Shown here: positions 8,226 through 44,494 of the stretch, piece by piece
How the letters are laid out: each line of letters begins with the position of its first letter
How positions within the stretch are numbered: position 1 is the stretch's first letter
NCBI GenBank assembly: GCA_964347215.1
Contig: CAYFXS010000001.1
Span: 1-44,494, forward strand
Source: an uncultured Candidatus Saccharibacteria bacterium
GTDB lineage: Bacteria > Patescibacteriota > Minisyncoccia > Phycocordibacterales > UBA918
DNA length: 44,494 nucleotides
Direction of reading: 5' to 3'
Translations under genes and position numbers: made by a program
Notes under the pieces: model-generated
What the model was told of the DNA's origin: nothing
Database searches by the model: none
The model's input: the letters and a program-made list of their open reading frames with translations, nothing else

Positions 8226-8226
8226 G

Positions 8227-8270: not shown

Positions 8271-8271
8271 C

Positions 8272-8538: not shown

Positions 8539-8665
8539 ATACTTCTTAATTAATTATTTGTAATAAGTTTTATCAAAGTTAAAAAAAAATGCAATAACCA
8601 ATTTTGGTTGGCAAAGATTTTAACGATTTTGTTTTAAATGAGCAACCTGTTAATAATTTTTCCCA

Positions 8666-9139: not shown

Positions 9140-9190
9140 CTTAGTAAGAATATCATAAGAAAAAAGACCGATCTTACTCGGTCTTTTTTC

Positions 9191-9733: not shown

Positions 9734-9764
9734 ACTTGTTTTGATTATTTAAAGAATAGGTTAA

Positions 9765-10751: not shown

Positions 10752-10855
10752 GAGTTTATTGTACTGGAAAAATAAATATATAGAACTTGTACTCAGTTGT
10801 TTTTTATCAGCCAGTTTATTTCCATCATAAATTATTTAAAAATGTAGGTTAGGGC

Positions 10856-10886
10856 TTGACAATTTTATAGACTGTGCTAGTATATT
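10856..10886 (+). promoter_or_regulatory. Orphan sigma70-like promoter pointing into a noncoding locus
   Basis: TTGACA at 10856-10861 is followed by a 16-nt spacer and an extended -10, tgcTAGTAT(ATT), at 10875-10886. No plus-strand protein gene lies downstream. Confidence 0.45.
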
Positions 10887-10941
10887 GTTAATTCGTTCCA
10901 CGGTCACTTGGTTGGCCACAGGTCTATTAATGAGAAATAAA

Positions 10942-10970
10942 TAAAAAAGCGTTCACAGAAACGCCGTTTT
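10942..10970. terminator. Short hairpin with T runs on both strands (the run is better placed on the minus strand)
   Basis: gcgtt (10948-10952) pairs with aacgc (10959-10963). An A6 run lies upstream and cgttttt lies downstream. Confidence 0.5.
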
Positions 10971-10981
10971 TATTTGTTTAG

Positions 10982-11129
10982 AGTTTGAGGGTATAACCCT
11001 CTAAACAACAAAAGGCTGCTACTACGAGGGTATTGTGGTACTCACCTCGAGTGAGAGCGCTGCACTATTGCTTAGTATAGTATCCACTTCGTCCGCGAAG
11101 TTTTGTTTAGAGGGTTATAGACTCAAACT
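10982..11129. repeat. 148-nt palindromic element with 27-nt arms and a 94-nt centre; candidate structured RNA or MITE-like element
   Basis: Positions 10992-11008 (tataaccctctaaacaa) are the exact reverse complement of 11103-11119. Positions 10982-10989 pair with 11122-11129, giving 25 of 27 positions paired. The centre contains further small hairpins (ctcac..gtgag at 11041-11055 and cttcg..cgaag at 11087-11100). Confidence 0.6.
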
Positions 11130-11233
11130 ACTCTTTTGGTCGCTTGTAACGAACGAAATTTGTTTCAAGTCCGACTATATCATATGCACTACAGAGCAAC
11201 ACTGTTCAAAAAAGTATTGCTGTGGTCTAGAAC

Positions 11234-11272
11234 AAAAAACACGGCAGACCTGAAAGGTCTGCCGTGTTTTTT
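11234..11272. terminator. Bidirectional intrinsic terminator after pilB
   Basis: aaaaaacacggcagacc (11234-11250) and ggtctgccgtgtttttt (11256-11272) are exact reverse complements. Confidence 0.8.
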
Positions 11273-11281
11273 GTTTCTTGA

Positions 11282-13003
11282 CTAAACAACATGAGAAAGG
11301 AAGTCATCATCCTGGGTTGTTTTGTTGTCTTTGTGGCGACTGTTGGTTAAGTCTACCACCCGTTCCAGTTCTTTAAGTGAGGTGGTTCCAGCTAAAACTT
11401 TTGTTATGCCATCTTCTGCCATAGTAGGAATGTTTTGTGCTTGCGCAGCCTCATGAATGATGTGTTCTCGTGGGTCGCTAATTACTGCTTCTTCAACCGT
11501 AGTATCGACTCTAACTGCTTCAAACACTGCCTGTCGACCTTTGTAGCCAGTGTGATTACATTGTTCACAACCACCTGCTTCATAAATCATTAAAGATTCA
11601 GGTAGTTGTGGTTTGTCAGGATGTTGGTTGGCAATTTCTTTGATAAGTTCTAATTCTTGTGGGGTGGGTTGATGAGCGGTTTTACAATGATCACACAAAA
11701 CTCTCACCAGGCGCTGACCAATGATTACATTAACTGCTGAACCCATTACTCGATTATCAACCCCTAGATCCATTAAGCGAGGGAAGGCACCAACAGCACT
11801 GTTGGTATGTAGGGTTGAGAATACTAGGTGACCAGTTTGTGCGGCGTGTACTGCTGTTTCAGCCACTTCACGATCTCGAATCTCACCAACCATAATTACA
11901 TCTGGATCTTGTCGTAGTACCGCCCGTAAGCCAGAAGAGAAGGTGTAGTCTTTGTCTACTTGAGTTTGGACAATCCCATCTAGTTTGTATTCCACCGGGT
12001 TCTCGATAGTGATGATTTTTTTACCAGGTTCATGCACTTGTTGTAGAAAAGCGTAGAGGGCAGTGGTTTTACCAGAGCCGGTTGGGCCGGTGGTCACAAT
12101 CAGTCCATTTGGTCTTTTCAATTCTTCTTGCATGACTGCGAATATGTGTTTATTCATCCCTAATTTCTCTAATTGGAATCCAGCCACAGACGGATCTAAA
12201 AGACGCATCACCATGGATTCACCAGCTGAACCAGGGATTACAGAAGAGCGAACTTCAATATCGGTGTCACCAACAGTGAAGGTAAAACGTCCGTCCTGAG
12301 CTTCGTTTTTAATATTTAAAATCATCCCAGATAGTAGCTTGAGACGTGATAGTAGTCGTTCGTAAATGTGTTTATCAAGATCGATGATGTCACGCAGAAC
12401 ACCATCTAATCTGTAGCGCAATCTAATACCAGATTCTTCTGGTTCAATATGAACATCAGAAGCATCTAAAGCTAGAGCGCCGGCGAACGTGGCCTCCATA
12501 GTTTCAGAGATGCGTCGAGGGCCGTTCATGGTTCTGATGTTTAGAATATAGTCTGACACCGCCTCAGGAGTTTTCAGTTTTTGCATTTGTAAGGCGATGT
12601 TGTCAGTGTTGATGTCGAACACTCCATGCTTAACAGCTTCAGTGTTTTTGCTGTCAGCGTAACGACTCCAAGCATGCTCCAGGCCGGTGCTTGAAGCCAT
12701 GAATATATTTACGGTGTACCCGTCATCTTCTAGTTGTTGCAATAAATCTTTTGTTTTTGGGTTGTTGGGGTTGCGAATGGCAAGTGAGAGTTTTTTGCGA
12801 GCGATTTCAAAACCGGCCACTTTCGCTTCGCGAGCCACTTCTTCTGTAATGGTGCGTAGGGCGGTGGGGTTGATTGAGGCGCCGCGGAGATTGATGAATT
12901 CGTAGCCGTATTGAGCGGCTAGATTTTTAATTAAATCTTCTTCTTCTTTACGGCGAAGTTCCGCCATCTTCTCATTACTAAAAGTGTCATCGAACTGAAC
13001 CAT
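11282..13003 (-). CDS. pilB: Type IV pilus / type II secretion assembly ATPase (PilB/GspE family)
   Basis: It has an N-terminal GSPII_E_N-like domain, Walker A (GPTGSGKTT), Walker B/Asp box (VIMVGEIRD), a His box (GHLVFSTLHTN) and a tetracysteine motif (CDHCK...CEQCNHTGYKGR). Confidence 0.88.
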   Translation of the reverse strand: MVQFDDTFSNEKMAELRRKEEEDLIKNLAAQYGYEFINLRGASINPTALRTITEEVAREAKVAGFEIARKKLSLAIRNPNNPKTKDLLQQLEDDGYTVNIFMASSTGLEHAWSRYADSKNTEAVKHGVFDINTDNIALQMQKLKTPEAVSDYILNIRTMNGPRRISETMEATFAGALALDASDVHIEPEESGIRLRYRLDGVLRDIIDLDKHIYERLLSRLKLLSGMILNIKNEAQDGRFTFTVGDTDIEVRSSVIPGSAGESMVMRLLDPSVAGFQLEKLGMNKHIFAVMQEELKRPNGLIVTTGPTGSGKTTALYAFLQQVHEPGKKIITIENPVEYKLDGIVQTQVDKDYTFSSGLRAVLRQDPDVIMVGEIRDREVAETAVHAAQTGHLVFSTLHTNSAVGAFPRLMDLGVDNRVMGSAVNVIIGQRLVRVLCDHCKTAHQPTPQELELIKEIANQHPDKPQLPESLMIYEAGGCEQCNHTGYKGRQAVFEAVRVDTTVEEAVISDPREHIIHEAAQAQNIPTMAEDGITKVLAGTTSLKELERVVDLTNSRHKDNKTTQDDDFLSHVV

Positions 13004-22862: not shown

Positions 22863-24101
22863 ATGAAGTATTTTAGTTACGGTAAAGGATTGCTAGGTCT
22901 TGGTTTGCTACTGTTTGTAGCATCTGGTTACTGGTTGTTTTTTACCAGTGGTCACATCTTTACTAGTCAGTCAGCTACGGCTGACTCTAGTTTGGCCCAA
23001 CATAATAAATACTTTGCTACCAATCCATCATTTGGTGAGTTGGTGATTTACTTTCAAGATCTTTCACATGAGATTGGGGCTGATAAAGCTTTTGATGTCT
23101 TGATTTATGGTGATCTGCCGTCAGATGTAGATACTCATTTGGTTGGTCATGCTGTAGGGGACATTCTTTATGAACAGAAGGGTTTGTTAGGAATGTCTGA
23201 CTGTGACAGTAATCTTGGTTACGCGTGTACTCATTCGATAGTTATTCAGGCTTTGTTGCAACAAGGCCCTTCTGTATTTGATGAGATAAATGAGATTTGT
23301 GAGTCGATGGAAGTGGCTGGTAGTTACCCACTTTGTTTCCATGGCTTTGGACACGGTGTTTTGGCCTACGCTGATTATGAGTTACCGGATGCTATTGAGT
23401 TTTGCGGCAAAGTGGGGACGGAAAAGTATCAGAGCTACGAAGAGGTTGAATGTCTAGGAGGAGCTATTATGGAGATGAAAGAAGGTTTTCATAATCCAGA
23501 TTTATGGGAAGAAAGAGGTACTAAATATCTGTCGGATGAAAATCCTTTATTGATGTGTCAGTCAGATTATATGCCTGAGGAATATAAACGAATGTGTTAT
23601 ATCTACATCACGCCATTTATCTTCGACACAGTTTCGGGTGTAGGTTGGCCTGATCCAAATAAATTTGCTGAGGCTATGAGTTACTGTGACGTATTAGATG
23701 ACCCTAAACACAGAGATGGTTGTTTTGGTGGTTTTGGTAAAGAATATATCACTTTAGTGCACGGCCGAGACGTGCGTTTGATTGAAGAAACTACACCAAA
23801 GCAACACCAGACAATCAATGAATGGTGTGCTTTAGCTTCAGATATGGCTGGGGTTAGATCTTGTGTGCGTAATGCTATGTACAGTACCTACAAAGCGGGG
23901 GCAATTGATCACAATGTTACGGTCAGTTTGTGTAATGAGGCGGTAAATGATGAGGTAAGAAATGATTGTTTGAAATCTTTTATTTACAACGCTAGTTCAC
24001 ATCACCCTAATAATGAATACGCTAATCAGTTTTGCTTAGATATGCCAGAGGGGTACATTGGATATTGTTTTGATCGTTTTATGGATGCAATAGCAGAATA
24101 A
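22863..24101 (+). CDS. Membrane-anchored/secreted paired-cysteine His-rich protein, paralog 1
   Basis: It has an N-terminal TM helix and the motifs HLVGHAVGD, ACTHSIV and CFHGFGHGV. It aligns over long stretches with the 36073-37284 product (e.g. CFHGFGHGVLA, GGAIMEMK, DYMPEE). Confidence 0.8.
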   Translation: MKYFSYGKGLLGLGLLLFVASGYWLFFTSGHIFTSQSATADSSLAQHNKYFATNPSFGELVIYFQDLSHEIGADKAFDVLIYGDLPSDVDTHLVGHAVGDILYEQKGLLGMSDCDSNLGYACTHSIVIQALLQQGPSVFDEINEICESMEVAGSYPLCFHGFGHGVLAYADYELPDAIEFCGKVGTEKYQSYEEVECLGGAIMEMKEGFHNPDLWEERGTKYLSDENPLLMCQSDYMPEEYKRMCYIYITPFIFDTVSGVGWPDPNKFAEAMSYCDVLDDPKHRDGCFGGFGKEYITLVHGRDVRLIEETTPKQHQTINEWCALASDMAGVRSCVRNAMYSTYKAGAIDHNVTVSLCNEAVNDEVRNDCLKSFIYNASSHHPNNEYANQFCLDMPEGYIGYCFDRFMDAIAE

Positions 24102-24118: not shown

Positions 24119-25129
24119 ATGATCAAGCGTTTATCAATATTGTTGATCATTCTGATTATAGCGGGGTTGGTTTGGTGGCTGGCAGACAGCAGTGTCTACT
24201 CAGATGATATGCAAGGGGATGATCAAACTCCGCCAGTTGCGAGTGCTGATGTGTTTGAGCTAAAAGAATACTGGGTATCAGCTTTAGATCGAGATGAACC
24301 ACAAGCTGTATACGATTATTTTGTACGTACTTATGAAAATGATGATGAGAATAAACGTCATTTTCTTATGCATTTATTTAGCTCATTACTTTATGAAAAA
24401 ATGGGGGATAAAGCGTTGGAATTGTGTGATGAATCATTTTTTTATGGGTGCTTCCATGAAATATTAGCGAGTCTAATGAAAGACCAAGGGGTGGGTTCAA
24501 TCGATAAAATTGCAGATTTTTGCGGTGACAATTTAGGGTGTCAGCACGGTATAGGTCATGGATTGGTAATGCATTTTGGGTACCAACAGTCAGGCTTAAT
24601 TGAAGCTTTGGAAATGTGTCGTTATGTTAACGATCCGGAAGTTATAGATGGTTGCTTGGGAGGAGTGTTTATGGAGTACACCATGGAAACTGTCGGTCAG
24701 GTAACTGATGCAGTTGGCGAAGATCGTAGATATTTTAGAACTGATTTTTGCTATGGATTACCTACAGAAACAAAAGCGGCTTGTTATTTTTGGGTGGTGC
24801 AGTGGTACATAATAGATAACAATTTTAATATGGCTGATTTAAAAATTGCGAGTGGCCGAGAATTTTGTGCAGAGGCTGAAGAAGGTTATGTTGACGATTG
24901 TATGGGAGGAATCGGTTACGTAGTTAATCGCTTTGCTGTTAATCCAGATGAAAGCATCAGACTTTGCCAGTGGGCCAGTCCCAATCAAGAAGAGTTGGAA
25001 GTAGAGGAATGTTTAGTGGTGGCAGCTATTGATTACGGTTTCTTTAGTGATGAGACAGCGGTAGATAAGTTATGTGATTTGGTTTCTGGAGATAATCAAA
25101 GTCGTTGCCGGTCGGTTTTGAATGACTAA
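24119..25129 (+). CDS. Membrane-anchored/secreted paired-cysteine His-rich protein, paralog 2 (shorter, divergent)
   Basis: It has an N-terminal TM helix, GCFHEILASL, CQHGIGHGL, and a repeated phi-C-x(6-14)-C-x-x-G pattern. Confidence 0.75.
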   Translation: MIKRLSILLIILIIAGLVWWLADSSVYSDDMQGDDQTPPVASADVFELKEYWVSALDRDEPQAVYDYFVRTYENDDENKRHFLMHLFSSLLYEKMGDKALELCDESFFYGCFHEILASLMKDQGVGSIDKIADFCGDNLGCQHGIGHGLVMHFGYQQSGLIEALEMCRYVNDPEVIDGCLGGVFMEYTMETVGQVTDAVGEDRRYFRTDFCYGLPTETKAACYFWVVQWYIIDNNFNMADLKIASGREFCAEAEEGYVDDCMGGIGYVVNRFAVNPDESIRLCQWASPNQEELEVEECLVVAAIDYGFFSDETAVDKLCDLVSGDNQSRCRSVLND

Positions 25130-34445: not shown

Positions 34446-35690
34446 ATGGAAATAATAGCTGGTTTTATTTTAGCTCTCACAAGCTTACTAGGATTTAATA
34501 ATTTACAAGACACCGAACATCTTGCTTCGGTGGAGTTAGGTTTGGCTGAAGTCTCGCCTTTAGGAGAAGAAGGAGGGTATGCAGTGCCAGCTAGTGGTTG
34601 TTCTTACATTACTCAGTTGGACTCACATGGAGAAATTTGTGTTAGCGATATCCCTCTGTCGTTAGAATTAGACGCTTTTCCTAATCCTACCACTTACAAT
34701 GGCTCGACTATGTTGGATTGGACTGTTTACGGTGCTACTGGTTGTGATGCTAGCGATGGGTGGTCTGGCGGTAAAGATGCTGGAGATGGTTCTTGGTACC
34801 AAATTGTAAATAATTTAACCGCTACCACTACTTTCACTCTGACCTGCTATGACGACGTGGGTAATTCAGTAGTTGATACGGTAACCGTAGGGGTTATTGA
34901 ACCTGATTTATCGGGTGGAGTGTCTGTTTCTATAACAGCTGATCCTCTGGAGGTGATGCGTGGTTTAGGAACGGCAGTTTTGTGGGAAGTTAGAAATGCA
35001 ACTGATTGTACCGCTAGCGGTGGTTGGTCTGGTAGTAAGAACAGTAACACCGGTAATCATGCTCAGTTTGTCGACAACCTACAGTCGGATACAACTTTCA
35101 CTATCACATGTATTGATGGTTCAGGAGGTAGTGCTACAGATAGTGTGACAGTAACTGTCATTAATAACCTAAATTCACCTTCGGTAGAACTCTTCGCTGA
35201 TCCGTTAGTTGTTGAATATGATGGTTCGACACAGTTAACTTGGTTTGTAGCTAACTCAAACAGTTGTTCTGCCAGTAATGGCTGGTCTGGTAGTAAGTCT
35301 AGCTCTGATGGTCAGCATAACCAGACAGTGAACAACATCATAGCCACTACAACTTTTGAGATTACTTGTACCGATGGTAGTGATAGTGATTATGATGAGG
35401 TTACAGTTTTCTTAACCTATCCTGAGCCAACTATCACAGCTACACCGCAGGTGGTGAAACCTGGTGAAGATGTAACTATTGAATGGGACCCACAAGCTTA
35501 TACTGACTGTACATTGTCTTCCAATTTAGAAAATGATCCAGACTTCATTGCTGACGGTAAGTCTGCTAACATAGCTGATACCTTTGTGGTAAATCCGACT
35601 GGTCAAACCACTTACTCTATCTATTGTGCCACTAGCGGTTCAGGAGCAGAGGTGGATGTGCATGTGGTGCCAGTAATTGAGGAAACTTAG
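34446..35690 (+). CDS. Secreted protein with four tandem ~90-aa two-cysteine Ig-like repeats
   Basis: The repeats are ...LDWTVYGATGCDASDGWSGGK...TTFTLTCYD..., ...LWEVRNATDCTASGGWSGSK...TTFTITCID..., ...LTWFVANSNSCSASNGWSGSK...TTFEITCTD..., and a divergent fourth (IEWDPQAYTDC...TTYSIYCAT). Confidence 0.7.
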   Translation: MEIIAGFILALTSLLGFNNLQDTEHLASVELGLAEVSPLGEEGGYAVPASGCSYITQLDSHGEICVSDIPLSLELDAFPNPTTYNGSTMLDWTVYGATGCDASDGWSGGKDAGDGSWYQIVNNLTATTTFTLTCYDDVGNSVVDTVTVGVIEPDLSGGVSVSITADPLEVMRGLGTAVLWEVRNATDCTASGGWSGSKNSNTGNHAQFVDNLQSDTTFTITCIDGSGGSATDSVTVTVINNLNSPSVELFADPLVVEYDGSTQLTWFVANSNSCSASNGWSGSKSSSDGQHNQTVNNIIATTTFEITCTDGSDSDYDEVTVFLTYPEPTITATPQVVKPGEDVTIEWDPQAYTDCTLSSNLENDPDFIADGKSANIADTFVVNPTGQTTYSIYCATSGSGAEVDVHVVPVIEET

Positions 35691-36072: not shown

Positions 36073-37284
36073 ATGAGATTTAAGTGGGGGTTAGTTATAC
36101 TTGTTGCTTTATTGAGTTTAGTGATATTTTTTTTAATTAAATATTTTGACTTATTTTCCATGATTGTCTCTACGGACATGGGGGATGATATTGCAGCCGC
36201 TGAATCAGCGGCGACTAATTTGGCCGAGCTATCAGTTTTTTTTGTCGATATAGCTGAAGAGCAGGGGGCTGTGTACGCTTATGAGCTTTTGCAGAAAATT
36301 ACCTTTCCGCCACACATCGATCAACATTTGATGGGTCATGTGGTGGGCGATGAGCTCTACAAGCAAGAGGGTCTTTCCGGAATGCAGTATTGCACCGATG
36401 ATTTTCGCAATGCTTGTTCGCACACTATTGTTATTGGGGCCTTATTGGAGCACGGGATGAAAGTGTTTAATGAGGTGAATGATGTATGTCATCTGGCTCC
36501 TGGTGGTACTGGGGCTTACACCATGTGTTTCCATGGTTTTGGTCACGGTGTTTTAGCTTTTGCAGAGTATGATATGGCTAAAGCGGTAGAGCTTTGTCAA
36601 AAGGCTGGGACAAGGGAGTATTTCAATCAGGAGTCTAATGAATGTATTGGTGGAGCTGTAATGGAGATGAAAGATGGAATTCATGATGAGGCAGTTTGGT
36701 CTCTACAGAAGGATAAGTATGTAAACCCAGAAAACCCACTGTCAATCTGTCAGGCAGATTATATGCCCGAAGAAGCTAAAGAGCGCTGCTATTCTTACAT
36801 TACCCCGTACCTTTTTGATGCTGGTGGGGCTGATGGTGGGTTGCCTACTCCGGATATATTTGCGGACAGTATGGCTTTTTGTGACCTAGAGCCAAATAGT
36901 CAATATCGATCACTTTGCTATCGTGGTTTTGGTAAGGAATATGTAGTTTTGGCTGTTGATTACCAGATAAGCTTACTAGAAAATGCGAACGGTGATCAAT
37001 TACAGAAAAATTTAGATTGGTGTAACTTGGCAGATGATGATGGGGGAGCGCTTGAGTGCAAAAAAGAAGTTGTTAATTCATTGTATTGGGGTGGTGAAAA
37101 TGATTATGCAGTTTCTTTGCGGTATTGTGCTTTGTGGCCAGAGGACATTGCTCAAAATTGTTATGAAACTTTGTATCGTAATGCAAAATATTATGTTCAT
37201 GATGAACATTATTACGGGCAGCTATGTAGTGATTCACCGCTTGAGCGGCAACAATTATGTTATTCAATGTTAGATCTAGAATAG
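36073..37284 (+). CDS. Membrane-anchored/secreted paired-cysteine His-rich protein, paralog 3 (closest to paralog 1)
   Basis: It has an N-terminal TM helix and the motifs HLMGHVVGD, ACSHTIVIGALL, CFHGFGHGVLAF, GGAVMEMKDG and ADYMPEEAK. Confidence 0.8.
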   Translation: MRFKWGLVILVALLSLVIFFLIKYFDLFSMIVSTDMGDDIAAAESAATNLAELSVFFVDIAEEQGAVYAYELLQKITFPPHIDQHLMGHVVGDELYKQEGLSGMQYCTDDFRNACSHTIVIGALLEHGMKVFNEVNDVCHLAPGGTGAYTMCFHGFGHGVLAFAEYDMAKAVELCQKAGTREYFNQESNECIGGAVMEMKDGIHDEAVWSLQKDKYVNPENPLSICQADYMPEEAKERCYSYITPYLFDAGGADGGLPTPDIFADSMAFCDLEPNSQYRSLCYRGFGKEYVVLAVDYQISLLENANGDQLQKNLDWCNLADDDGGALECKKEVVNSLYWGGENDYAVSLRYCALWPEDIAQNCYETLYRNAKYYVHDEHYYGQLCSDSPLERQQLCYSMLDLE

Positions 37285-38711
37285 CTGCTCATCACAAGTT
37301 GTTTTGGTTGGTGGCGGGGGTTTTGGCTGTTGTTTTCGTCTGCTTACATTTTATAAATTTTACAAATCATCAGATTAGATTTGATGGGCAGAAATTTATA
37401 CCAGAATATTTAGAAGTGAAGGTGGGAGATAGAGTGGTATTTATCAACGAAAGTGATAAAGAATTCTGGCCTGCTTCTAATTTACACCCCTCACACTCCA
37501 TATACAGTGAGTTCGACCCTAAACAGCCAGTGGCTATGGGTCAGTCATGGTCTTTTGTGTTTACTAAGGTTGGCGATTGGGAATTTCACGATCATTTAAC
37601 TCCAACAGCTAAGGGTCAAATATCAGTTTTAAGGAATAGTGATACAGAAAATACAGTCAGTAATTGTCAGGACAATATTACGTGTTGGCAGGAGCAGATA
37701 GTGAGCACTTTAAAAAAAGACGGGGCTGAAGAGGCTTTTGCTGTCTTCTCTCAGTTGTACGCAAATGAGGATAGGTTTCGTGTAGTGTGTCATGATATGG
37801 CACATTTGATTGGAGAGGAGGCTTATTCGGAGTTTGCTAAAGGGGCTGATTTTTCTCTTACGAATGCAACATCGTATTGTGGTTATGGTTTCTACCATGG
37901 TTTTATGGAGACATTGTTGGTTACTACTGGTGATATGGCGGCTGCTAGAAATTTCTGTGATTACGTTGATGAACAATTACAAGCATATGGTTCTGCTGCC
38001 ACCCAGGCTTGTTACCATGGAGTGGGACACGGTTTTACTGACGGTAGTGATCCGCGTGCTTGGGGAGATCCTGGTCGAGTAACTGCTACAGCGCTTAGAA
38101 TGTGTGAGGAAATTGCTACAAACTATAAAGATAAGTACCTGTGTGGCACAGGGGTTTATAATGGTCTGGCGATTGCTTTTGATGAAGGTCTGTATGATCT
38201 GTCAGTTACTCCGGAGACCGTATTTTCTACCTGTGCTGAAGTGGTAGATAAGGACTTTAAATTAGCTTGCTACGAACAAATGAATACATTAGCTGTTTCG
38301 GAAGCTCAGTACCATGCTGGTACTCTATTCAAAATGATTAGCGAAATTGAAGATAAAGAGTATGTCGGCTTAACTCTGCAATCAGCCGTTGGTGTCTTGG
38401 CTCATGCTAACCGTTCAGATGTTGGTTTGTTAGAAAATTTATTATCTGAGTGTTTGACTGTGTTTGAGTCTGAGCAGGTGATGTGTCTTAGCGGGGTAGT
38501 TGGTGGGTTGATAGAATTCGGTACACCTGGCCGGGAACATATTGAAGCAGCCGATTTGTGTCAATTGGATAGTCTTAACTCAGTTCAGCAGACGCAGTGC
38601 TTCCAGTCAGTAGTTGGTTTTGCACGTACCAGCAAAGGTGAATTAGTAGCTAGAGAAGTTTGTGATTTGTATTCCGATCAAACAGGTGAGACTTTATCTA
38701 ATTGTCGGTGA
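37257..38711 (+). CDS. Fusion: N-terminal TM helix plus cupredoxin-like domain (all-His signature) plus paired-cysteine His-rich domain, paralog 4
   Basis: The cupredoxin-like part is FIPEYLEVKVGDRVVFINESDKEFWPASNLHPSHSIYSEFDP...WSFVFTKVGDWEFHDHL. After it come CHDMAHLIGE, CGYGFYHGFMETLL and CYHGVGHGF. It overlaps the upstream gene by 28 nt. Confidence 0.8.
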   Translation: MLFNVRSRIAAHHKLFWLVAGVLAVVFVCLHFINFTNHQIRFDGQKFIPEYLEVKVGDRVVFINESDKEFWPASNLHPSHSIYSEFDPKQPVAMGQSWSFVFTKVGDWEFHDHLTPTAKGQISVLRNSDTENTVSNCQDNITCWQEQIVSTLKKDGAEEAFAVFSQLYANEDRFRVVCHDMAHLIGEEAYSEFAKGADFSLTNATSYCGYGFYHGFMETLLVTTGDMAAARNFCDYVDEQLQAYGSAATQACYHGVGHGFTDGSDPRAWGDPGRVTATALRMCEEIATNYKDKYLCGTGVYNGLAIAFDEGLYDLSVTPETVFSTCAEVVDKDFKLACYEQMNTLAVSEAQYHAGTLFKMISEIEDKEYVGLTLQSAVGVLAHANRSDVGLLENLLSECLTVFESEQVMCLSGVVGGLIEFGTPGREHIEAADLCQLDSLNSVQQTQCFQSVVGFARTSKGELVAREVCDLYSDQTGETLSNCR

Positions 38712-38713
38712 AT

Positions 38714-39592
38714 TTAACGTTGGGTATTTTTTAAGGCATTACTAAATTGTTGGTTGTCAGGATTTAGTTCGATGGCTTTTGTGAAGGCATCGATGGCTTC
38801 TGTAGTGGAGCCAGCCCCCTGGTAGGCAACACCCATGGTGTAGTAAACTTCAGCCTTCTCTCTAATCTCATGTAAAAAATCCTGACAAGCTACCACTGCT
38901 TCATCAAATTTTCTTTGGTAAATATATAGCCAGGCCAGTCCCAGGTACGACTCGCTTTTGGGGTTAATGGTAAATACTTTTTGATACATGTCTTCAGCTT
39001 CGGTATAACGTCCCATTTCTCGGTAAAGGTCACCTAGGCCCGAGTGGGCTATTTCGCTGTTAGGGTTTATCGCTAGGGATTTTTTAAACATAGCTTCTGA
39101 CTCTTTATGTCGACCCTCTTCAAAATATAAGTAGCCTAAGCCATAACTATAAGCATTTTCAAAATTAGGATCGATTTCCAGGGCTTTATAGAAGCTAGTT
39201 TCGGCTTCCTGGTAAAGATTCATGTTGCGGTAGAGTTTACCTAAATCTGTATAAATCCACGGGTTGTTTGGGTCAATTTTCAATGCTTCTTTAAACATAG
39301 CTTCCGATTCTGCATATTTACCCCAATAACGATATGTGTGAGCTGTGTCTAAGTGAGCTTGTAGATTGTCTGGTTCCAATTCAATAATTCTTAGGTAGTG
39401 AGCAATAGATTCTTCATATTTACCAGTAACGTATAGCTTATCGGCTTCAGTAAAAAGAGAGTTGATGTCAGTGGTAGTAATATTTAGTTCTTTTTCGGGT
39501 TTAGGTTGATTGTTGTTGGTGTATAAAAAAACAACTGTCATAATTAATAAAATCAACAATATCGGAGCGATGAACATTAACTTTTTGGACAT
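38714..39592 (-). CDS. Membrane-anchored TPR repeat protein
   Basis: It has an N-terminal TM helix and about seven clear 34-aa TPR units (e.g. YEESIAHYLRIIELEPDNLQAHLDTAHTYRYWGK). It is the only minus-strand gene in this block. Confidence 0.8.
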   Translation of the reverse strand: MSKKLMFIAPILLILLIMTVVFLYTNNNQPKPEKELNITTTDINSLFTEADKLYVTGKYEESIAHYLRIIELEPDNLQAHLDTAHTYRYWGKYAESEAMFKEALKIDPNNPWIYTDLGKLYRNMNLYQEAETSFYKALEIDPNFENAYSYGLGYLYFEEGRHKESEAMFKKSLAINPNSEIAHSGLGDLYREMGRYTEAEDMYQKVFTINPKSESYLGLAWLYIYQRKFDEAVVACQDFLHEIREKAEVYYTMGVAYQGAGSTTEAIDAFTKAIELNPDNQQFSNALKNTQR

Positions 39593-39639
39593 GTCTGTAT
39601 TGTAACAGTCTGTATAAATCTGGTGTTATACTAAGGCGA

Positions 39640-41115
39640 ATGTTCAGACTATTTTCAGCTCAGGTACTATTAATTATCGGTATTTTATTGGCTGCTTTTT
39701 TAAGTTTTATACTATTTTTCTCAGCTGGCAACCAACATGAAGTAGTGCTCACTGAGTCTGGTTATCAACCTTTGAGTTTAACGATTGCGGTGGGAGATAC
39801 TGTCACATTTGTTACTAACTTAGCTGAAGATCATTGGCCAGCCTCTAATGTTCATCCAGCCCACACAGCTTATCCTGATTTTGATCCTCGTCGCCCTGTG
39901 CCAGCAACAGTGTCTTGGTCTTTTACTTTTACTGAGTCTGGCACTTATAAATTTCATGACCATTTAAATGCCCAGTATGAAGGTGTTATTGTGGTGGGGG
40001 AGGAGACGAAAATAGATACTGCTGCTTGTGATCAGGATAAAACAGTGCGTTGTTTTGAACAGTTGGTGGAGGAGGTGGTGGCAGAAGGTGGAATAAAAGC
40101 GGCTTTTGATGTGGTGGTAGAGCTCTCAGAGACTGAACCGTTATTTCGTAATGATTGCCATGGTTACGCTCATATAATAGGCGAGGCAGCGTATGATCTG
40201 TATGCAAATGGAGAAGATTTTTCATTGTCAGCTGATACCGCTTTATGTGGTTACGGTTTCTATCATGGCTTCATGGAAACATTACTACTTACCAATGGTG
40301 ATGTAGAAGAAGCTCGTAGTTTTTGTCGCTACGTTGATAAGCAATTATCTAAACTGGCGGCTGGAGCGAGCAATGCTTGTTTCCATGGTACAGGTCATGG
40401 GGCGGTAGACGGTAGTGATCCGACCGCTTGGGGTGATGTAGATGCTCTGATGGAGCCAGGTTTTATTTTGTGTGAGAAGATCGCTAAAACTGAGCTGCAA
40501 AGTTACCTTTGTCACACAGGGGTGTTTAACGCGATTGATATTCTTTCTCGTGATCCTAAATACGACATAGAGGAAGTTCAACAAGATCCGTTTGCTACCG
40601 TTTGCTACCATCAGCCAGATGAACGTCTAGAAGGATGTTACACCAACATGATGCCGGTAGTTTTAACAATGTATAAAAATGATGTTGCGGCGACCGCTGA
40701 TTATATTAATGAACATATGTTAAGAGGGGAGACGCCTTCAATTGAGGGTTATACAACCAATGAGATGGTTACCTTAGCTGTGTTTGCCCAATATGTTCGT
40801 ATTCATGGGTCTGAAGAGGGTTATATGGAAAGAGCGATTGATCTGTGTCGATCGCAACCGGCTGACGATCAGTATGCTTGCTTTGAAGGGTTATCTTACA
40901 GTCATGTTAAGTATGGTCCACCCGGCAAGGGTTACATCAAGAATCTGGAATTTTGTGCCCATCCTGATTTGGTAGACACAGAAGAAGATGCTTGTTATAG
41001 CTATTTATTAAATCGTTTACGTAATTACTATGGAAATGAAGGAGCTAAGCAAGTGTGCGCTATGGTTCCGGAAGAATATAGTAGTAAGTATTGCCAGTAT
41101 GTCTCGTTTATTTAA
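39640..41115 (+). CDS. Fusion: N-terminal TM helix plus cupredoxin-like domain plus paired-cysteine His-rich domain, paralog 5
   Basis: The cupredoxin-like part is YQPLSLTIAVGDTVTFVTNLAEDHWPASNVHPAHTAYPDFDP...WSFTFTESGTYKFHDHL. After it come CHGYAHIIGE, CGYGFYHGFMETLL and CFHGTGHGA. Confidence 0.8.
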   Translation: MFRLFSAQVLLIIGILLAAFLSFILFFSAGNQHEVVLTESGYQPLSLTIAVGDTVTFVTNLAEDHWPASNVHPAHTAYPDFDPRRPVPATVSWSFTFTESGTYKFHDHLNAQYEGVIVVGEETKIDTAACDQDKTVRCFEQLVEEVVAEGGIKAAFDVVVELSETEPLFRNDCHGYAHIIGEAAYDLYANGEDFSLSADTALCGYGFYHGFMETLLLTNGDVEEARSFCRYVDKQLSKLAAGASNACFHGTGHGAVDGSDPTAWGDVDALMEPGFILCEKIAKTELQSYLCHTGVFNAIDILSRDPKYDIEEVQQDPFATVCYHQPDERLEGCYTNMMPVVLTMYKNDVAATADYINEHMLRGETPSIEGYTTNEMVTLAVFAQYVRIHGSEEGYMERAIDLCRSQPADDQYACFEGLSYSHVKYGPPGKGYIKNLEFCAHPDLVDTEEDACYSYLLNRLRNYYGNEGAKQVCAMVPEEYSSKYCQYVSFI

Positions 41116-42295
41116 GGTCATTACATTATTTATATTAATTTTAGCTTCAGCAGTGGCTGTTTGGTGGTTTAGTTTCAGTAAGGAAGCGGTTGTTGATTTG
41201 TCCATTTCTGATTATGCGCAGCTGTTAGTGGAGAATTGCAGTGAAGTAGATTACAAACCGTACTGTTACGAAACTGAGTTGATGGGATTGACTCCTGATT
41301 TACCTACCACGGAAATATTTGATGTTATTAGATCAATTAGAGACTATGACCCAGAGTATTTGTTCTGTCATGTAGCTGCTCATAACTTAGGGCAGTATGA
41401 GGTCTCCAAAGATCCTAATAATTGGCTCGACGTGTTAGCCAATAGTCCAACCGATGGGTTATGTTCGAATGGTTACGCTCATGGTGCTATTCTGGCGCGC
41501 TTTAATGGTGAGACATTTACTGGTGATGAATTAATTACCATTATTGATCAGTTAAAAGATGTTTGTGAACCAAGAGGGGAATGGCAGCCAACTGATTTGC
41601 ATAAGGCAATGTGTTATCACGGACTGGGTCACGTTATGATTCATGTCACCGAAACTGACGTTGTTAAGTCATTGGCGGCATGTGAAGACATTGCCTTAAA
41701 AGAAAATGATGACTTCAGGCGAGTTTGTCGTGAGGGGGTTTATATGCAGCTATTTCAACCGCTTGAGCCAGAAGACTACGCGCTGATTGATTTGTTGGAA
41801 ACTAAACCAAGTCGGAAAAATATTGAAGACTTTTGTCAACGCTATAGCAGCAATGAAGATGAGTTCAACGTTTGTTGGCGTGAGGCTTGGCCATTTTTTA
41901 ATCAAGATTTACGAACTGCCGAAGGGGTGGCTGGTTATTGTGAAGTGTTGTCTGACGAAGATGGTAAAAATAATTGCTATTACTCAGCTTTCACAATCAA
42001 CGGTCGACATTTTCTTGGTCAACCAGAGGTGATTGTTGATATTTGTGAGGCTAGTGCTGCCGAGCGGCAGGGGATGTGTTATCAGGTGGCAGCTAATGCT
42101 TATCTGGAAGAAGATGCGCAGTTGGTTAGCGAAGGTTTGGCCATGTGTGAGTTACCAACTAGTCAAGTAGCAAAAGAGGAGTGTTATGGACATCTAGCTC
42201 GTTTGTCAGACTTCAATTTTCATCGTGACTCTGAGGCATTTACAGAACTCTGTCAGGCGTTACCTGAGAAATTTCAGGCATCCTGTTGGGATTGA
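41099..42295 (+). CDS. Membrane-anchored/secreted paired-cysteine His-rich protein, paralog 6
   Basis: The start is set at the internal ATG (MSRLFKVITLFILILASAVAVWWF), which overlaps the upstream gene by 17 nt. The motifs are FCHVAAHNLGQ, LCSNGYAHGAIL and CYHGLGHVM. By my count it has 18 Cys, mostly in pairs 9-15 residues apart. Confidence 0.75.
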   Translation: MSRLFKVITLFILILASAVAVWWFSFSKEAVVDLSISDYAQLLVENCSEVDYKPYCYETELMGLTPDLPTTEIFDVIRSIRDYDPEYLFCHVAAHNLGQYEVSKDPNNWLDVLANSPTDGLCSNGYAHGAILARFNGETFTGDELITIIDQLKDVCEPRGEWQPTDLHKAMCYHGLGHVMIHVTETDVVKSLAACEDIALKENDDFRRVCREGVYMQLFQPLEPEDYALIDLLETKPSRKNIEDFCQRYSSNEDEFNVCWREAWPFFNQDLRTAEGVAGYCEVLSDEDGKNNCYYSAFTINGRHFLGQPEVIVDICEASAAERQGMCYQVAANAYLEEDAQLVSEGLAMCELPTSQVAKEECYGHLARLSDFNFHRDSEAFTELCQALPEKFQASCWD

Positions 42296-42318
42296 TGTTC
42301 GTGTTATACTCTCGATGT

Positions 42319-42834
42319 ATGAAGCGTTTAACTCATTTTATCCTACTAACATTTCTGGTTTTCTTTCTGCCAACTTTAGTACAAGCTCATGGCAGTGGAG
42401 GAACGTACGAAGAAATAATTGATGGCTATCAGATTGATATTGGTTATACTCCTGAAGTGGTTGAGACCACTTCGTCTATTCGTTTTGATTTTCAGGCTTA
42501 CGTGGCAGAGAATCCGCAGGCAACTAGTTCAGAGTTTCACGATGTGTGGGTGAGAATCGAAAAAGAAGGAAAACTATTTTTTGCTGGCGACGTCCATAAG
42601 CCAGTCTTTGGTCCAACTGGGTTTAGTACGATACTTACTGAAGCTGGGGAATATACAGTTTACGCTCGTTTTCAAAATAGCGGCGATTCTTTAGTTGAAG
42701 CGGAGTTCCCACTTACAGTGACTGAAAATACGGCTGAAAAATCAGTTAATGACAAACTCAGTTTATTGTTAATGGGTCTGGCAGGTTTGATGGTTGGCTT
42801 TGTAGTAGGTTGGTTTATGACCAGACAGTCTTAA
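42319..42834 (+). CDS. Secreted beta-sandwich-like protein with a C-terminal TM anchor; the predicted mature N-terminus is His
   Basis: The start is set at MKRLTHFILLTFLVFFLPTLVQA, with a likely cleavage after VQA that leaves HGSGGTYEE. The C-terminal hydrophobic helix is LSLLLMGLAGLMVGFVVGWFM, followed by TRQS. Confidence 0.65.
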   Translation: MKRLTHFILLTFLVFFLPTLVQAHGSGGTYEEIIDGYQIDIGYTPEVVETTSSIRFDFQAYVAENPQATSSEFHDVWVRIEKEGKLFFAGDVHKPVFGPTGFSTILTEAGEYTVYARFQNSGDSLVEAEFPLTVTENTAEKSVNDKLSLLLMGLAGLMVGFVVGWFMTRQS

Positions 42835-42836
42835 GT

Positions 42837-43190
42837 ATGAAAAAAATATTAGTAACTTCAGTCTTGATCACCGTATTGCTATCAGTCGTTTTTTTCTGGG
42901 TTCAAAGACCTGGTGGTGAACAGTATATTATGGTGCGTACAGATGATGGTTATGAACCGCAAAACCTAACTATCAAGGTGGGGGATACTGTTGTATTTAA
43001 AAATGAAAGTAGTGAGTATCATTGGCCAGCTTCTGATTTGCATCCAACCCACGGTGCTTACCCGGCTTTTGATCCTCGTACCCCAATTGCTCCAGGAGAA
43101 GAGTGGTCTTTCCGTTTCACTCAAGCTGGCGCTTGGTCCTACCATGACCACTTACGAGCGAACTTAACCGGTGTGATCATCGCTGAATAA
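42837..43190 (+). CDS. Stand-alone membrane-anchored cupredoxin-like protein (all-His signature)
   Basis: MKKILVTSVLITVLLSVVFFW is the TM helix. The domain reads YEPQNLTIKVGDTVVFKNESSEYHWPASDLHPTHGAYPAFDP...WSFRFTQAGAWSYHDHL. Confidence 0.8.
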   Translation: MKKILVTSVLITVLLSVVFFWVQRPGGEQYIMVRTDDGYEPQNLTIKVGDTVVFKNESSEYHWPASDLHPTHGAYPAFDPRTPIAPGEEWSFRFTQAGAWSYHDHLRANLTGVIIAE

Positions 43191-43203
43191 AACAGGCAAT
43201 GTA

Positions 43204-43238
43204 AATGGGCCCGGATTCGATAAATCGATCCCGGCCCA
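43204..43238. terminator. GC-rich hairpin between the convergent cupredoxin gene and a small minus-strand ORF
   Basis: atgggcccggattcgat / atcgatcccggcccat form an imperfect palindrome. tgggcc (43205-43210) pairs with ggccca (43232-43237). Confidence 0.6.
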
Positions 43239-43243
43239 TCTTC

Positions 43244-43378
43244 TTAGAAGAATCCCGTCACAATGTTGGTGCGGCGGTTCAGTTGCTTGGCAACCTTCGT
43301 CCGATTGTTTTCGTTAATCAGACTGATGCCACGCAGTGGCGCCCAGTCGCCATTTGCACGACGATTGAATTGCACCAT
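43244..43378 (-). CDS. Hypothetical 44-aa basic protein in the G+C-rich insertion
   Basis: MVQFNRRANGDWAPLRGISLINENNRTKVAKQLNRRTNIVTGFF. The start is taken at the ATG just downstream of the repeated promoter/leader, and a hairpin follows the stop. It is short, so coding status is tentative. Confidence 0.45.
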   Translation of the reverse strand: MVQFNRRANGDWAPLRGISLINENNRTKVAKQLNRRTNIVTGFF

Positions 43379-43390
43379 AAAGGCAACTTC

Positions 43391-43447
43391 GTTCCAGTTA
43401 AGGTTGGATAAGTATATTGCCACACATATATACCTATTTGTCAATAG
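43391..43447 (-). repeat. Promoter/leader repeat, copy B (upstream of the 44-aa ORF)
   Basis: On the minus strand it reads ctaTTGACAaataggtatatatgtgtggcaaTATACTtatccaaccttaactggaac. Its gene-proximal 32 nt match copy A at 29 positions. Confidence 0.65.
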
Positions 43448-43490
43448 AGTTCAAATTATTTACAGGAAATGTTTTATATTAAAAATTTAA

Positions 43491-43516
43491 GGCCGGATGA
43501 TGTTACTCATCCGGCC
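43491..43516 (-). terminator. Intrinsic terminator after the 176-aa gene
   Basis: ggccggatga (43491-43500) pairs with tcatccggcc (43507-43516). On the minus strand it is followed by ttaaattttt. Confidence 0.7.
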
Positions 43517-43527
43517 CGAGGGCAGTT

Positions 43528-44058
43528 TTACCGCCAGTAAGGGTCCCAGCTGCGGGCGCCGCCACCGTAGCGGTAGAGCCAGCGCTCTTTTCCACCGGAC
43601 ACAATTTTGGTGTTCAGCAGTTTTTCGACCCAGCGGCGAGCATTGCCACCGCTTAGTCGTTCGACCCCGAACGCCTTGCCGTTCTTCACGGCAATAGCGT
43701 AAGGAGTATCCTTTGCATCGGGGTATTGGAACAGTACGACTTGCGAACCGTGCTCATCCACGATGCTGGCGTAGGCAACTGCTCGCCATTTCTGGTATTT
43801 GCCGTCCACATAGGTCTGATACCAGGCACGGTAGCGACCTGGGTCACCTTTGCGGTTAGTGTCGCACATGCGAATCATGTGGGAACGTTCTTGCCCGTTG
43901 GGTGCCAGGAAGAACATTTCCACTGCGGGACCAGCCCATTTGCCGGGCATGCCGCTGGCGCAAGCCAAAGCTCCAGTTGTAAGAGCAAGAGTGATTGGGA
44001 TGGCTGCGAGGGCCATCTTGATTTTACGGAACATTTCAAGTCTCCCTTGTTTGGCCAT
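43528..44058 (-). CDS. Hypothetical secreted protein or lipoprotein, G+C-rich (probably horizontally acquired)
   Basis: It is 176 aa with the signal-like N-terminus MFRKIKMALAAIPITLALTTGALAC (possible lipobox). Codon usage (CTG, GCC, CGC, GGC) is unlike the neighbouring genes. The start could be 44058 or 44034. Confidence 0.7.
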   Translation of the reverse strand: MAKQGRLEMFRKIKMALAAIPITLALTTGALACASGMPGKWAGPAVEMFFLAPNGQERSHMIRMCDTNRKGDPGRYRAWYQTYVDGKYQKWRAVAYASIVDEHGSQVVLFQYPDAKDTPYAIAVKNGKAFGVERLSGGNARRWVEKLLNTKIVSGGKERWLYRYGGGARSWDPYWR

Positions 44059-44065
44059 AGCGGCC

Positions 44066-44120
44066 GTTCCAGTTAAGGTTGAATAAATATATTGTCATAA
44101 ATAACTAGCTTTGTCAATAG
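44066..44120 (-). repeat. Promoter/leader repeat, copy A (upstream of the 176-aa gene)
   Basis: On the minus strand it reads ctaTTGACAaagctagttatttatgacaaTATATTtattcaaccttaactggaac. It shares the TTGACA box, the -10 region and the leader caaccttaactggaac with copy B. Confidence 0.65.
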
Positions 44121-44176
44121 GTAAGTTGAGTTGATGGATAATTTTTCTTTAAATAACTGATGTTAAAATTAACTTT

Positions 44177-44494
44177 ATGCAGAAAAAGTGGTTAGCTCCA
44201 TTGGTCTTGGTGGTGGCAATAGCTAGTTGTTTGGTTTGGTTTTTTAGTCAGAGTACAGCTGTGGTGAAAGAGGTTCTAATTACAGATAGTGGCTTTGTCC
44301 CAACCAGTCTAGATATCACAGTTGGGGAGACAGTTAGGTTTGTTAATCAATCTGGCCGTGATGCATGGCCAGCTTCTGACTCCCATCCTAGTCATGGAAT
44401 ATGGTCAGACTTTGACCCTCTGAAGCCATTGCTAGATGAAGAGAGTTGGGAATTTACTTTTGATCGTTTAGGCTCTTGGTCTTATCACGATCAT
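44177..44494 (+). CDS. Membrane-anchored cupredoxin-like protein, 4th copy (runs off the right edge of the window)
   Basis: An ATG at 44177 opens the frame MQKKWLAPLVLVVAIASCLVWFF...FVPTSLDITVGETVRFVNQSGRDAWPASDSHPSHGIWSDFDP...WEFTFDRLGSWSYHDH, which stays open to the end of the window. Confidence 0.8.
   Translation, partial: MQKKWLAPLVLVVAIASCLVWFFSQSTAVVKEVLITDSGFVPTSLDITVGETVRFVNQSGRDAWPASDSHPSHGIWSDFDPLKPLLDEESWEFTFDRLGSWSYHDH

Follow-up and report, generated by a model that had tools for sequence, protein, structure and literature searches.

Four paralogous cupredoxin-like proteins with a conserved histidine quartet and substituted type 1 copper ligands in a Candidatus Saccharibacteria contig

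The DNA analysed here (the window) comprises the 44,494 nucleotides of contig CAYFXS010000001.1 (assembly GCA_964347215.1), from an uncultured Candidatus Saccharibacteria bacterium. Near its end it encodes four paralogous copies of a cupredoxin domain in which all four positions of the type 1 (T1) copper site are substituted and four histidines are invariant, each of them conserved in no fewer than 98% of the 403 distinct family domains counted. This family, called His4 here, is a distinct, uncharacterised and fairly widespread cupredoxin subfamily in which the T1 site has been dismantled and a new putative ligand set acquired. We consider the best reading, to which we give about an even chance, to be that of an extracytoplasmic module for non-blue copper (or another metal) at the cell surface. 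What is new is a cupredoxin with a new ligand set that is linked to two orphan families, a helical Cys/His-rich domain (CH) and a protein with a predicted mature N-terminal histidine (N-His), in a genomic context that gives no pathway.

Four paralogous copies of the His4 cupredoxin

A preliminary description of the window had reported four open reading frames (ORFs) with a cupredoxin-like domain and an all-histidine signature. The ORF list and the translations bore this out, with the four ORFs on the plus strand, the coordinates as given and the quoted peptides correct, and in a multiple alignment the motifs W-P-A-S, H-P-x-H, F-D-P and H-D-H were invariant across all four copies. Pairwise identities ranged from 37 to 46% (BLAST, E 1e-25 to 1e-37), far above chance, and a six-frame scan found exactly four occurrences of WPAS..HPxH in the window, at 37467, 39835, 43023 and 44366.

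Copy 1 (37257..38711, 484 amino acids [aa]) consists of an N-terminal transmembrane helix followed by the His4 cupredoxin (approximately aa 38-124; key residues W71-P-A-S74, H77, H80, D87 and H111-D112-H113) and a CH domain, with hidden Markov model (HMM) matches of E=1e-40 and E=1e-111 for the two domains, respectively. The same arrangement was found in copy 2 (39640..41115), with the cupredoxin at aa 30-120 (W66, H72, H75, D82 and H106-D107-H108) and the CH domain at aa 125-491. This ORF 39640 was the protein modelled with AlphaFold2, and family positions are given in its numbering. Copy 3 (42837..43190, 117 aa; W63, H69, H72, H103 and H105) is a stand-alone, membrane-anchored His4 cupredoxin. 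Copy 4 (44177..44494) is partial and contains the transmembrane helix and the His4 cupredoxin, the window ending just after H-D-H. The reported fusion of two copies to a Cys/His-rich domain applied to copies 1 and 2, in which that domain is C-terminal. Each of the four cupredoxins was preceded by one N-terminal hydrophobic helix.

The domain belongs to the cupredoxin superfamily

Pfam, profile searches, an AlphaFold model, Foldseek and hhalign all supported a cupredoxin-like fold. In the Pfam scan, three window copies matched Cupredoxin_1 (PF13473) with 16.8, 23.6 and 22.4 bits, under the gathering threshold of 27, and the partial copy 4 gave no match to it. Precomputed PF13473 matches exist for many orthologs, and an Actinomycete member reached 28.8 bits; the His4 family lies at the edge of this model. 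For the proteins of the gene cluster as a whole, the Pfam and NCBIfam scans rendered only these sub-threshold cupredoxin matches and tetratricopeptide repeats (TPR), with none for CH, N-His or a 176-aa inserted ORF, and PADLOC was negative.

A profile built from 116 full-length homologs matched amicyanin with an E value of 1.5e-6. With a profile of the domain only, amicyanin was matched at E=5e-8, and the next matches were NirK, plastocyanin and laccases; the NirK chains were matched by the profiles at E values of approximately 1e-3 to 1e-6.

The AlphaFold2 model of ORF 39640, built with the homolog alignment, had a predicted local distance difference test score (pLDDT) of 91 and a predicted template modelling score (pTM) of 0.84. 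In it, a helix at the N terminus precedes eight beta strands that span residues 32-119, and the remainder is an all-helical domain. When this model was compared with the PDB by Foldseek, the top matches were all cupredoxins, with a probability of 1.0 for dozens of them; template modelling (TM) scores were 0.79 for purple cupredoxin 5fc9 and plastocyanin 1bxu and 0.71 for amicyanin, and pseudoazurins and a Bacillus anthracis Cupredoxin_1 protein were also found. EfeO (7wgu) was among the matches, with an alignment TM score of 0.15-0.20 and a root mean square deviation of 23 Å, values that are meaningless globally. Membership of the His4 domain in the cupredoxin superfamily is therefore established.

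The type 1 ligands are substituted and four histidines are conserved

To map the ligand positions, the family profile was aligned by hhalign with 17 classical T1 repeats (H...C-x-x-H-P-x-M) drawn from multi-repeat proteins of the representative search (see below), with a probability of 97% and an E value of 2e-11. The first T1 histidine (His1) fell on position 65, the cysteine on D107, the second histidine (His2) on the variable position 110 and the methionine on approximately position 113, while the segment PASn.HP was handled as a 7-residue insertion, with HPxH inside it. HMMER alignments to amicyanin and plastocyanin were in agreement with this mapping.

Column counts over the 403 domains gave a consistent picture. 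Position 65 was Phe in 296 and His in 36, position 107 was Asp in 374 and Asn in 24, and position 113, the equivalent of the T1 methionine, was mostly Phe or Tyr. The reported absence of the Cys, His and Met ligands thus held at all four T1 positions. For its part, the quartet was almost without exception: His was found at position 72 in 401 domains, at 75 in 396, at 106 in 401 and at 108 in 398; position 82 was Asp in 399.

The all-histidine signature of the preliminary description calls for one refinement. The invariance of the quartet was upheld, but the four histidines do not take the place of the T1 ligands: two flank the former cysteine (H-D-H), and the other two belong to the H-P-x-H loop that is inserted after strand 4. 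This placement points to the type-2/trinuclear copper face of NirK and multicopper oxidases (MCOs). In MCOs (H-C-H, H-S-H) and NirK (H-C), the HxH around the cysteine position binds type-2/type-3 copper on the face that lies opposite the T1 pocket, and these histidines lie at a domain interface. In phmmer, YHDHL was aligned to WYHSH, the trinuclear-cluster motif of laccase domain 1.

An alternative assignment, in which HPxH would correspond to the MCO L3 signature HPxHxH with H72 as the T1 histidine, was rejected because both in hhalign and in the plastocyanin and amicyanin alignments the T1 histidine corresponds to position 65 and HPxH forms part of an insertion.

Among the matches of the representative search, the long proteins P0213, P0221 and P0342 contain classical T1 cupredoxin repeats, 6-10 of them in tandem, and in addition one or two Cys-less repeats per protein. 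In the latter, the ligand strand has the sequence G-Y-H-D-(R/K/G), in which Asp occupies the cysteine position and His precedes it. They may represent intermediates in the evolution of the H-D-H family.

Possible packing of the two histidine segments

The only stretch of the ORF 39640 model with a pLDDT below 50 was residues 72-77, the HPxH loop, as might be expected if this loop becomes ordered on binding a metal. Contacts between the two segments were sought in the alignment by mean-field direct coupling analysis (DCA) of 386 family domains (effective number of sequences, 354; 4186 pairs). As a control, the analysis recovered the strand ladders (T54-T96, T56-S94, T102-V118, F105-G115 and S100-G120). 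The top 40 of the 4186 pairs included four between the HPxH loop and the H-D-H strand: V71-Y103, P79-K104, A74-L109 and A77-K104. For V71-Y103 a size-compensating pattern was observed, L/W versus V/Y. The former T1 positions (37, 41, 42, 65, 107 and 113) formed a separate coupled cluster, and this would fit an old T1 pocket packed with aromatics, with D107 pointing inward and H106 and H108 to the opposite side. Couplings among the invariant histidine columns themselves were discarded, the first run being an artefact of a few outlier sequences and the result after filtering being uninformative.

These couplings lend weak support to a packing of the HPxH and H-D-H segments against each other beside the old T1 pocket. 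From the covariation and the model we infer that the four histidines would converge on one exposed site beside, and not in, the former T1 pocket.

The CH domain and the N-His protein

The CH domain, of approximately 365 aa, contains 16 invariant cysteines and the motifs C-H-x3-H, Y-H-G-F-M-E and C-x-H-G-x-G-H-G-x2-D; in copy 2 these are C173-H174-x3-H178, Y-H209-G-F-M-E213 and C247-x-H249-G-x-G-H253-G, together with the 16 cysteines. Across the CH paralogs of the window, only the cysteines and two HxxxH pairs (H174, H178, H249 and H253) stayed invariant, and the domain probably carries a four-histidine site of its own, made of the two HxxxH motifs. Since Foldseek with the full-length model gave only cupredoxin matches, a CH-only protein was modelled separately (pLDDT 94, 24 helices). 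This model had no match in the PDB with E<1e-3, the best being designed ARM/HEAT repeats with TM scores of 0.2-0.3, and assignment of CH to an enzyme fold was rejected on the same ground. According to the model, CH is an alpha-solenoid stapled by disulfides, and it has no relative among solved structures or curated families.

In the N-His protein the invariant residues were H1, G4, E8, D17, D52, W54 and E104. Its profile matched only filamin immunoglobulin (Ig) repeats in the PDB (E approximately 0.2), and DUF1775 (PF07987) matched neither any of 11 N-His members at E<=10 nor the protein of the window at E<=0.1. A word-indexed homolog search yielded only 4 proteins, and the family was gathered instead from fusion proteins of the representative search. 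Fusions of the type N-His-transmembrane helix-cupredoxin were found in other genomes (P0254, P0281 and P0335), and as Rosetta stone evidence they suggest that the neighbouring window genes 42295-42834 and 42837-43190 act together.

Distribution and genomic neighbourhood

A representative search over 1.84 billion clusters yielded 246 matches with E<=1e-30 (50%-identity clusters) and 4068 with E<=1e-10. The best 150 of these included 53 cupredoxin-CH fusions and 41 stand-alone proteins of less than 170 aa, as well as tandem cupredoxin-cupredoxin proteins (rare, e.g., P0211), doubled fusions and N-His-cupredoxin fusions. The named close homologs were all from Patescibacteria, the Candidate Phyla Radiation (CPR). 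An exact-motif scan of one genome per GTDB species (185,579 genomes) gave 250 confirmed loci, most of them in Patescibacteria (Parcubacteria/Paceibacterota lineages, Daviesbacteria, Doudnabacteria and Peribacteria), and many of the metagenome-assembled genomes (MAGs) with the motif carry the submitter label Saccharibacteria or Gammaproteobacteria. Other hosts were high-GC Actinomycetes, Gaiellaceae and Rubrobacteraceae (GC 0.64-0.67, contigs of up to 2.8 Mb), one Anaerolineaceae MAG and one Verrucomicrobiia MAG. The His4 family is thus confined neither to the source organism nor to the CPR.

The neighbourhood was surveyed at 78 loci (±6 kb). A CH ORF was present at 70 of them, fused to the cupredoxin in 51 and only separate in 19, in accordance with the suggested co-occurrence of the C-x-HG-x-GHG domain. 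The suggested association with the N-terminal-His protein was also observed, N-His ORFs being found at 25 loci and adjoining the cupredoxin ORF at 22 of these, besides the fusions described above. When the neighbouring ORFs were clustered, only TPR proteins, PMT-like GT-C glycosyltransferases (in Actinomycetes only) and a DsbA-like thioredoxin recurred, at 5-6 loci each. Motif scans aimed at P-type ATPases, Ftr1, MCOs and Cu,Zn-SOD gave 0-1 matches each, with the REGLE permease motif at 1 of the 78 loci, and an H-C-H motif was found in four ORFs.

In Actinomycetes, the CH gene lies immediately upstream of a lipoprotein-type cupredoxin gene, which is followed by the PMT-like GT-C genes. Two such loci, L047 (approximately 6300-10000) and L081 (approximately 9100-11400), have one or two PMT-like GT-C genes downstream of the CH and cupredoxin pair, together with a convergent gene for a 460- to 475-aa protein with an N-terminal cytochrome c domain, and SufBD upstream; this arrangement recurs at 5-6 Actinomycete loci.

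Comparison with known systems

The preliminary description had been unable to assign the genes to a described system, and none was found in Pfam, NCBIfam, the PDB (Foldseek) or the literature; the literature searches gave no description of the His4 cupredoxin family or of its domain combination. With the T1 blue copper proteins (amicyanin, plastocyanin, pseudoazurin and the purple cupredoxin Nmar_1307, 5fc9) the family has in common the Greek-key fold and the size (the superfamily fold is a beta-sandwich of about 90-110 residues), and with the classical repeats the F-x-P-x-x-L-x-I-x-x-GDTV-x-F-x-N strands and the FD(P/S) turn. The T1 proteins are defined by His, Cys, His and Met (or Gln) as ligands, with C-x(2-4)-H-x(2-5)-M on the last loop. 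The His4 family differs from them in the four substituted T1 positions, the 7-residue HPxH insertion and the histidines flanking the former cysteine, and also in that its members are predicted to be membrane-anchored and are often fused to the 365-aa helical domain.

Domain 1 of three-domain MCOs and the type-2 site of NirK are likewise built on a cupredoxin without a functional T1 site and with HxH on the cysteine strand, a feature that the His4 family shows as H106-D107-H108, kept in at least 98% of the domains. However, the first HxH(G) motif of those enzymes is not conserved, position 65 being mostly Phe, and the second histidine pair is supplied by another loop, an inserted one. The residue between the H-x-H histidines is Asp, and not the Ser or Cys of MCOs. 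The His4 proteins have a single cupredoxin domain (with rare tandems) and no T1 entry site, and so lack the two or more cupredoxin domains, the four HxH-type motifs and the T1 site that define MCOs and NirK.

FtrB (Cup-II) and the N-terminal domain of EfeO (EfeO-N) are Cys-less extracytoplasmic cupredoxins that bind Cu(II) and have Asp in the metal site (PMC11966278), and the His4 family likewise has Asp at the former cysteine. FtrB is a Cu2+-binding cupredoxin without the His/His/Cys site that loses binding in the D118A mutant and speeds Fe2+ oxidation, and it is defined by a D118/H121 copper site, ExE and RKEKV substrate motifs and the neighbours ftrA, ftrC and ftrD (PMC11966278). Its ligand set of D118, H121 and a Glu cluster is not conserved in the His4 family, in which the residue three after the Asp is variable; near the His4 loci there is no Ftr1-type permease (with the single REGLE match as noted), and only the Asp is common to both. 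EfeO is also a cupredoxin fused to a helical metal-binding domain, and PF13473 is the best-scoring Pfam model for the His4 domain, but CH gave no match to M75 or imelysin, the HxxE-bearing C-terminal domain of EfeO (Pfam, NCBIfam and Foldseek), and neither efeU nor efeB was found in the window. The likeness to EfeO-N that had been proposed stood for the N-terminal fold only; the domain C-terminal to it is not of the M75 type, and a permease like EfeU/Ftr1 is lacking nearby.

The N-His protein resembles the YcnI/CopC type in having a signal peptide cut before a conserved histidine, a small beta-sandwich and, at the C terminus, a transmembrane helix. YcnI has a signal peptide, an N-terminal His with Glu and Trp as ligands and, at the C terminus, a transmembrane helix, and it binds Cu(II) (PMC8424229); histidine at the mature N terminus has been reported to be a general predictor of metal binding (PMC12537917). 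Its invariant H1, E8 and W54 would be the candidate counterparts of the YcnI residues His27, Glu50 and Trp137. The N-His protein has no sequence match to DUF1775, CopC or any Pfam or NCBIfam family, and shows only the faint filamin Ig resemblance.

Interpretation

In the reading that we favour, the T1 site has been dismantled, with Phe in place of His1, Asp or Asn in place of Cys, and variable or aromatic residues where His2 and Met would stand; the old pocket would be plugged by aromatics, and the four imidazoles would form one solvent-exposed mononuclear site next to it. This site would most likely hold type-2-like Cu(II)/Cu(I), with Asp107 and Asp82 in second-sphere or structural roles. The N-terminal helix is predicted to hold the domain on the outer face of the membrane, where the His4 cupredoxin, CH and, at about one-third of the loci, the Ig-like N-His protein would make up a three-part surface module. 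Most likely, the module would serve to capture, buffer or pass on copper (or a different transition metal), or to carry out simple one-electron redox chemistry at the cell surface.

Several points weigh against this reading. The coevolution signal is weak, the four loop-strand pairs in the DCA top 40 comparing with approximately 1.5 expected by chance. No copper gene (P-type ATPase, CopC/D, Sco, MCO or NirK) or metal permease was recurrent within 6 kb at the surveyed loci and, as far as we are aware, few cuproenzymes that would need a supply are known from most CPR bacteria. The paralogy, with four cupredoxin and six CH genes in 44 kb, is more like that of variable surface proteins than of a housekeeping metal pathway. 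In addition, four histidines with carboxylates would also suit Zn, Ni or Fe.

The last point, together with the lack of recurrent copper genes, leads to the least improbable of the alternatives, in our view an unlikely one, namely, that the module sequesters or captures a different metal (Zn, Ni or Mn) at the surface, in the manner of the N-terminal-His "anglerase"/sequesterase proteins; N-terminal-His proteins identified by signal-strapping include nickel binders and metal sequesterases (PMC12537917). Against it, the scaffold and the closest functional relatives are all copper proteins, and the H-x-H strand motif is typical of copper sites. Similarly doubtful, and slightly more so, is an iron module of the EfeO/FtrB type, in which a copper-loaded cupredoxin would oxidise Fe(II), and CH (like the M75 domain of EfeO) and the N-His protein (like P19/FtrA) would bind Fe(III) for uptake. 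The set of folds is that of Efe/Ftr (cupredoxin, helical metal-binding domain and Ig-like protein), the PF13473 match also covers EfeO-N, and FtrB combines Asp in its Cu(II) site with ferroxidase activity (PMC11966278). This proposal is opposed by the CH domain without M75 or imelysin match, by the poor EfeO superposition, by the lack of conservation of the FtrB-type carboxylate motifs and of a His three residues past the Asp, and by the context, since Ftr1/EfeU permeases, EfeB and peroxidases were not found in the window and REGLE was almost absent from the loci. We regard as improbable that no metal is bound at all and that the proteins form a surface module with which an epibiotic bacterium meets a structural or adhesive need, and whose His, Asp and Trp residues would bind a glycan or host surface or sense pH. 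The strong local paralogy, the neighbouring TPR and PKD/Ig-like surface proteins, the resemblance of CH to ARM/HEAT binding scaffolds and the PMT-like glycosyltransferases beside the Actinomycete versions would all agree with such a role, but the four histidines are kept across phyla while most surrounding positions vary more, and a site beside the ancestral copper site plus an N-terminal-His partner are hallmarks of metal sites.

The laccase trinuclear cluster is held by 8 histidines, a number that equals the cupredoxin quartet plus the CH histidines. A bi- or trinuclear copper site built at the interface between the two domains, that is, an unknown class of oxidase without T1 copper, would be consistent with HxH flanking the cysteine position (the MCO trinuclear motif) and with a quartet on the face that forms the interface in MCOs and NirK, with a CH fused or adjacent at 90% of the loci and with the pTM of the two-domain model, which suggests a fixed domain arrangement. 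However, cupredoxins that stand alone retain their histidine set, and CH-only paralogs retain theirs, which speaks for self-contained sites; a T1 site for electron entry is lacking as well, so that we hold this to be very unlikely; if it were true, there would be a T1-less surface oxidase in bacteria thought to be nearly devoid of respiratory and redox machinery. Scarcely credible, finally, is an ordinary blue-copper electron carrier of the plastocyanin/pseudoazurin type, for instance a NirK donor. JGI labels members "plastocyanin", and CPR studies have proposed cupredoxin/"plastocyanin" proteins, which may or may not be members of the His4 family, as NirK donors (PMC5581439, PMC12931201). The cysteine is Asp or Asn in 398 of the 403 domains, and His1, His2 and Met are lost as well; this loss of the Cys-His-Met ligands contradicts the carrier role, so that members should not be counted as blue-copper carriers and the JGI name is wrong for them.

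On the preferred reading of a metal-binding surface module, this sizeable uncharacterised family represents a cupredoxin scaffold to which an all-histidine site has given a new use. Should the site bind copper, the family would offer a natural mononuclear four-histidine centre on a cupredoxin scaffold, of interest to bioinorganic chemists and protein designers. Three orphan families (His4 cupredoxin, CH and N-His) are tied into one conserved, predicted surface module of ultra-small epibionts and some Actinomycetes, which provides an expressible target for how CPR cells handle transition metals or redox at their surface.

Organization of the gene cluster and the rest of the window

The region from 36.0 to 44.5 kb of the window is a cupredoxin/CH gene cluster, all on the plus strand except for a TPR gene and the units of an insert (see below). 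It starts with a CH-only paralog (36073..37284, 403 aa; transmembrane helix and Cys/His alpha-solenoid, with both HxxxH motifs kept) that has an ortholog at the equivalent cluster position in L001, a Yanofskybacteria genome, and in L003. After copy 1 lies the gene of a membrane-anchored TPR protein (38714..39592, minus strand; Pfam TPR), whose L003 ortholog is fused to a CH-like N-terminal part. Copy 2 is followed by a second CH-only paralog (41099..42295, 398 aa from the public start, P0121), which is the all-helical protein modelled above, and by the N-His gene (42295..42834, 179 aa), which adjoins copy 3 and encodes a signal peptide (...LVQA|HGSGG...), an Ig-like beta domain of approximately 115 aa and, at the C terminus, a transmembrane helix. 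The interspersed TPR and N-terminal-His genes of the preliminary description were thus present, and the two CH-only genes are additional to that account. The synteny was complete in L003 (cupCH-CH-CH/TPR-cupCH-CH-NHis-cup) and recognisable in L001.

Two more CH paralogs, both on the plus strand, lie 12 kb upstream of the cluster (22.9-25.1 kb), bringing the CH genes of the window to six: one of 412 aa at 22863..24101 (CFHGFGH motif; HMM E=1.7e-14) and a more divergent one of 336 aa at 24119..25129 (CQHGIGH motif; HMM E=1e-7). The mechanical ORF starts at 41030 and 42286 are probably too long. With the public starts at 41099 (P0121) and 42295 (P0355), most of the apparent gene overlaps vanish.

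The rest of the window encodes dnaA, dnaN, a penicillin-binding protein, TyrRS, RuvB, PolA and a type II/IV secretion ATPase, and an Rfam scan of the whole window yielded one tRNA and nothing else. In view of the named close homologs, all from Patescibacteria/CPR, the window is taken as a segment of a CPR chromosome. The positions of dnaA (1391-2773) and dnaN (3117-4211) at the window start, together with a cumulative GC skew that climbs steadily from approximately 10 kb, are consistent with a chromosome segment just to one side of the replication origin.

Copies 3 and 4 are separated by a GC-rich insert (43190-44176; 50-60% GC compared with approximately 40% in the surroundings) that is unrelated to the cupredoxin family and consists of two minus-strand units, each with a promoter-like site (TTGACA-N17-TATA(C/T)T) and a conserved 46-nt leader. 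The two leaders (43390-43435 and 44065-44110) are 83% identical. The insert ORFs encode 176 aa (43528-44058), with a lipoprotein-like N terminus and no Pfam or NCBIfam match, and 44 aa (approximately 43247-43378); PADLOC on both ORFs and Rfam on the region gave no match. The insert looks like foreign DNA within the cluster. In L001 (8946-9998 and 11486-14768), a Fic-domain gene interrupts the cupredoxin/CH cluster, and AbiEii and HepT/nucleotidyltransferase genes of toxin-antitoxin type follow the cluster. Foreign or defence-type genes enter the cluster in both L001 and the window.

Beside the cluster, the window encodes a surface protein with PKD/Big-like repeats (34446-35690). Its relative in L003 (13886-15058) contains a long low-complexity run of QSAYYT/QSRYY repeats, and a similar SQSAYY tail was observed in an ORF at the edge of locus L074.

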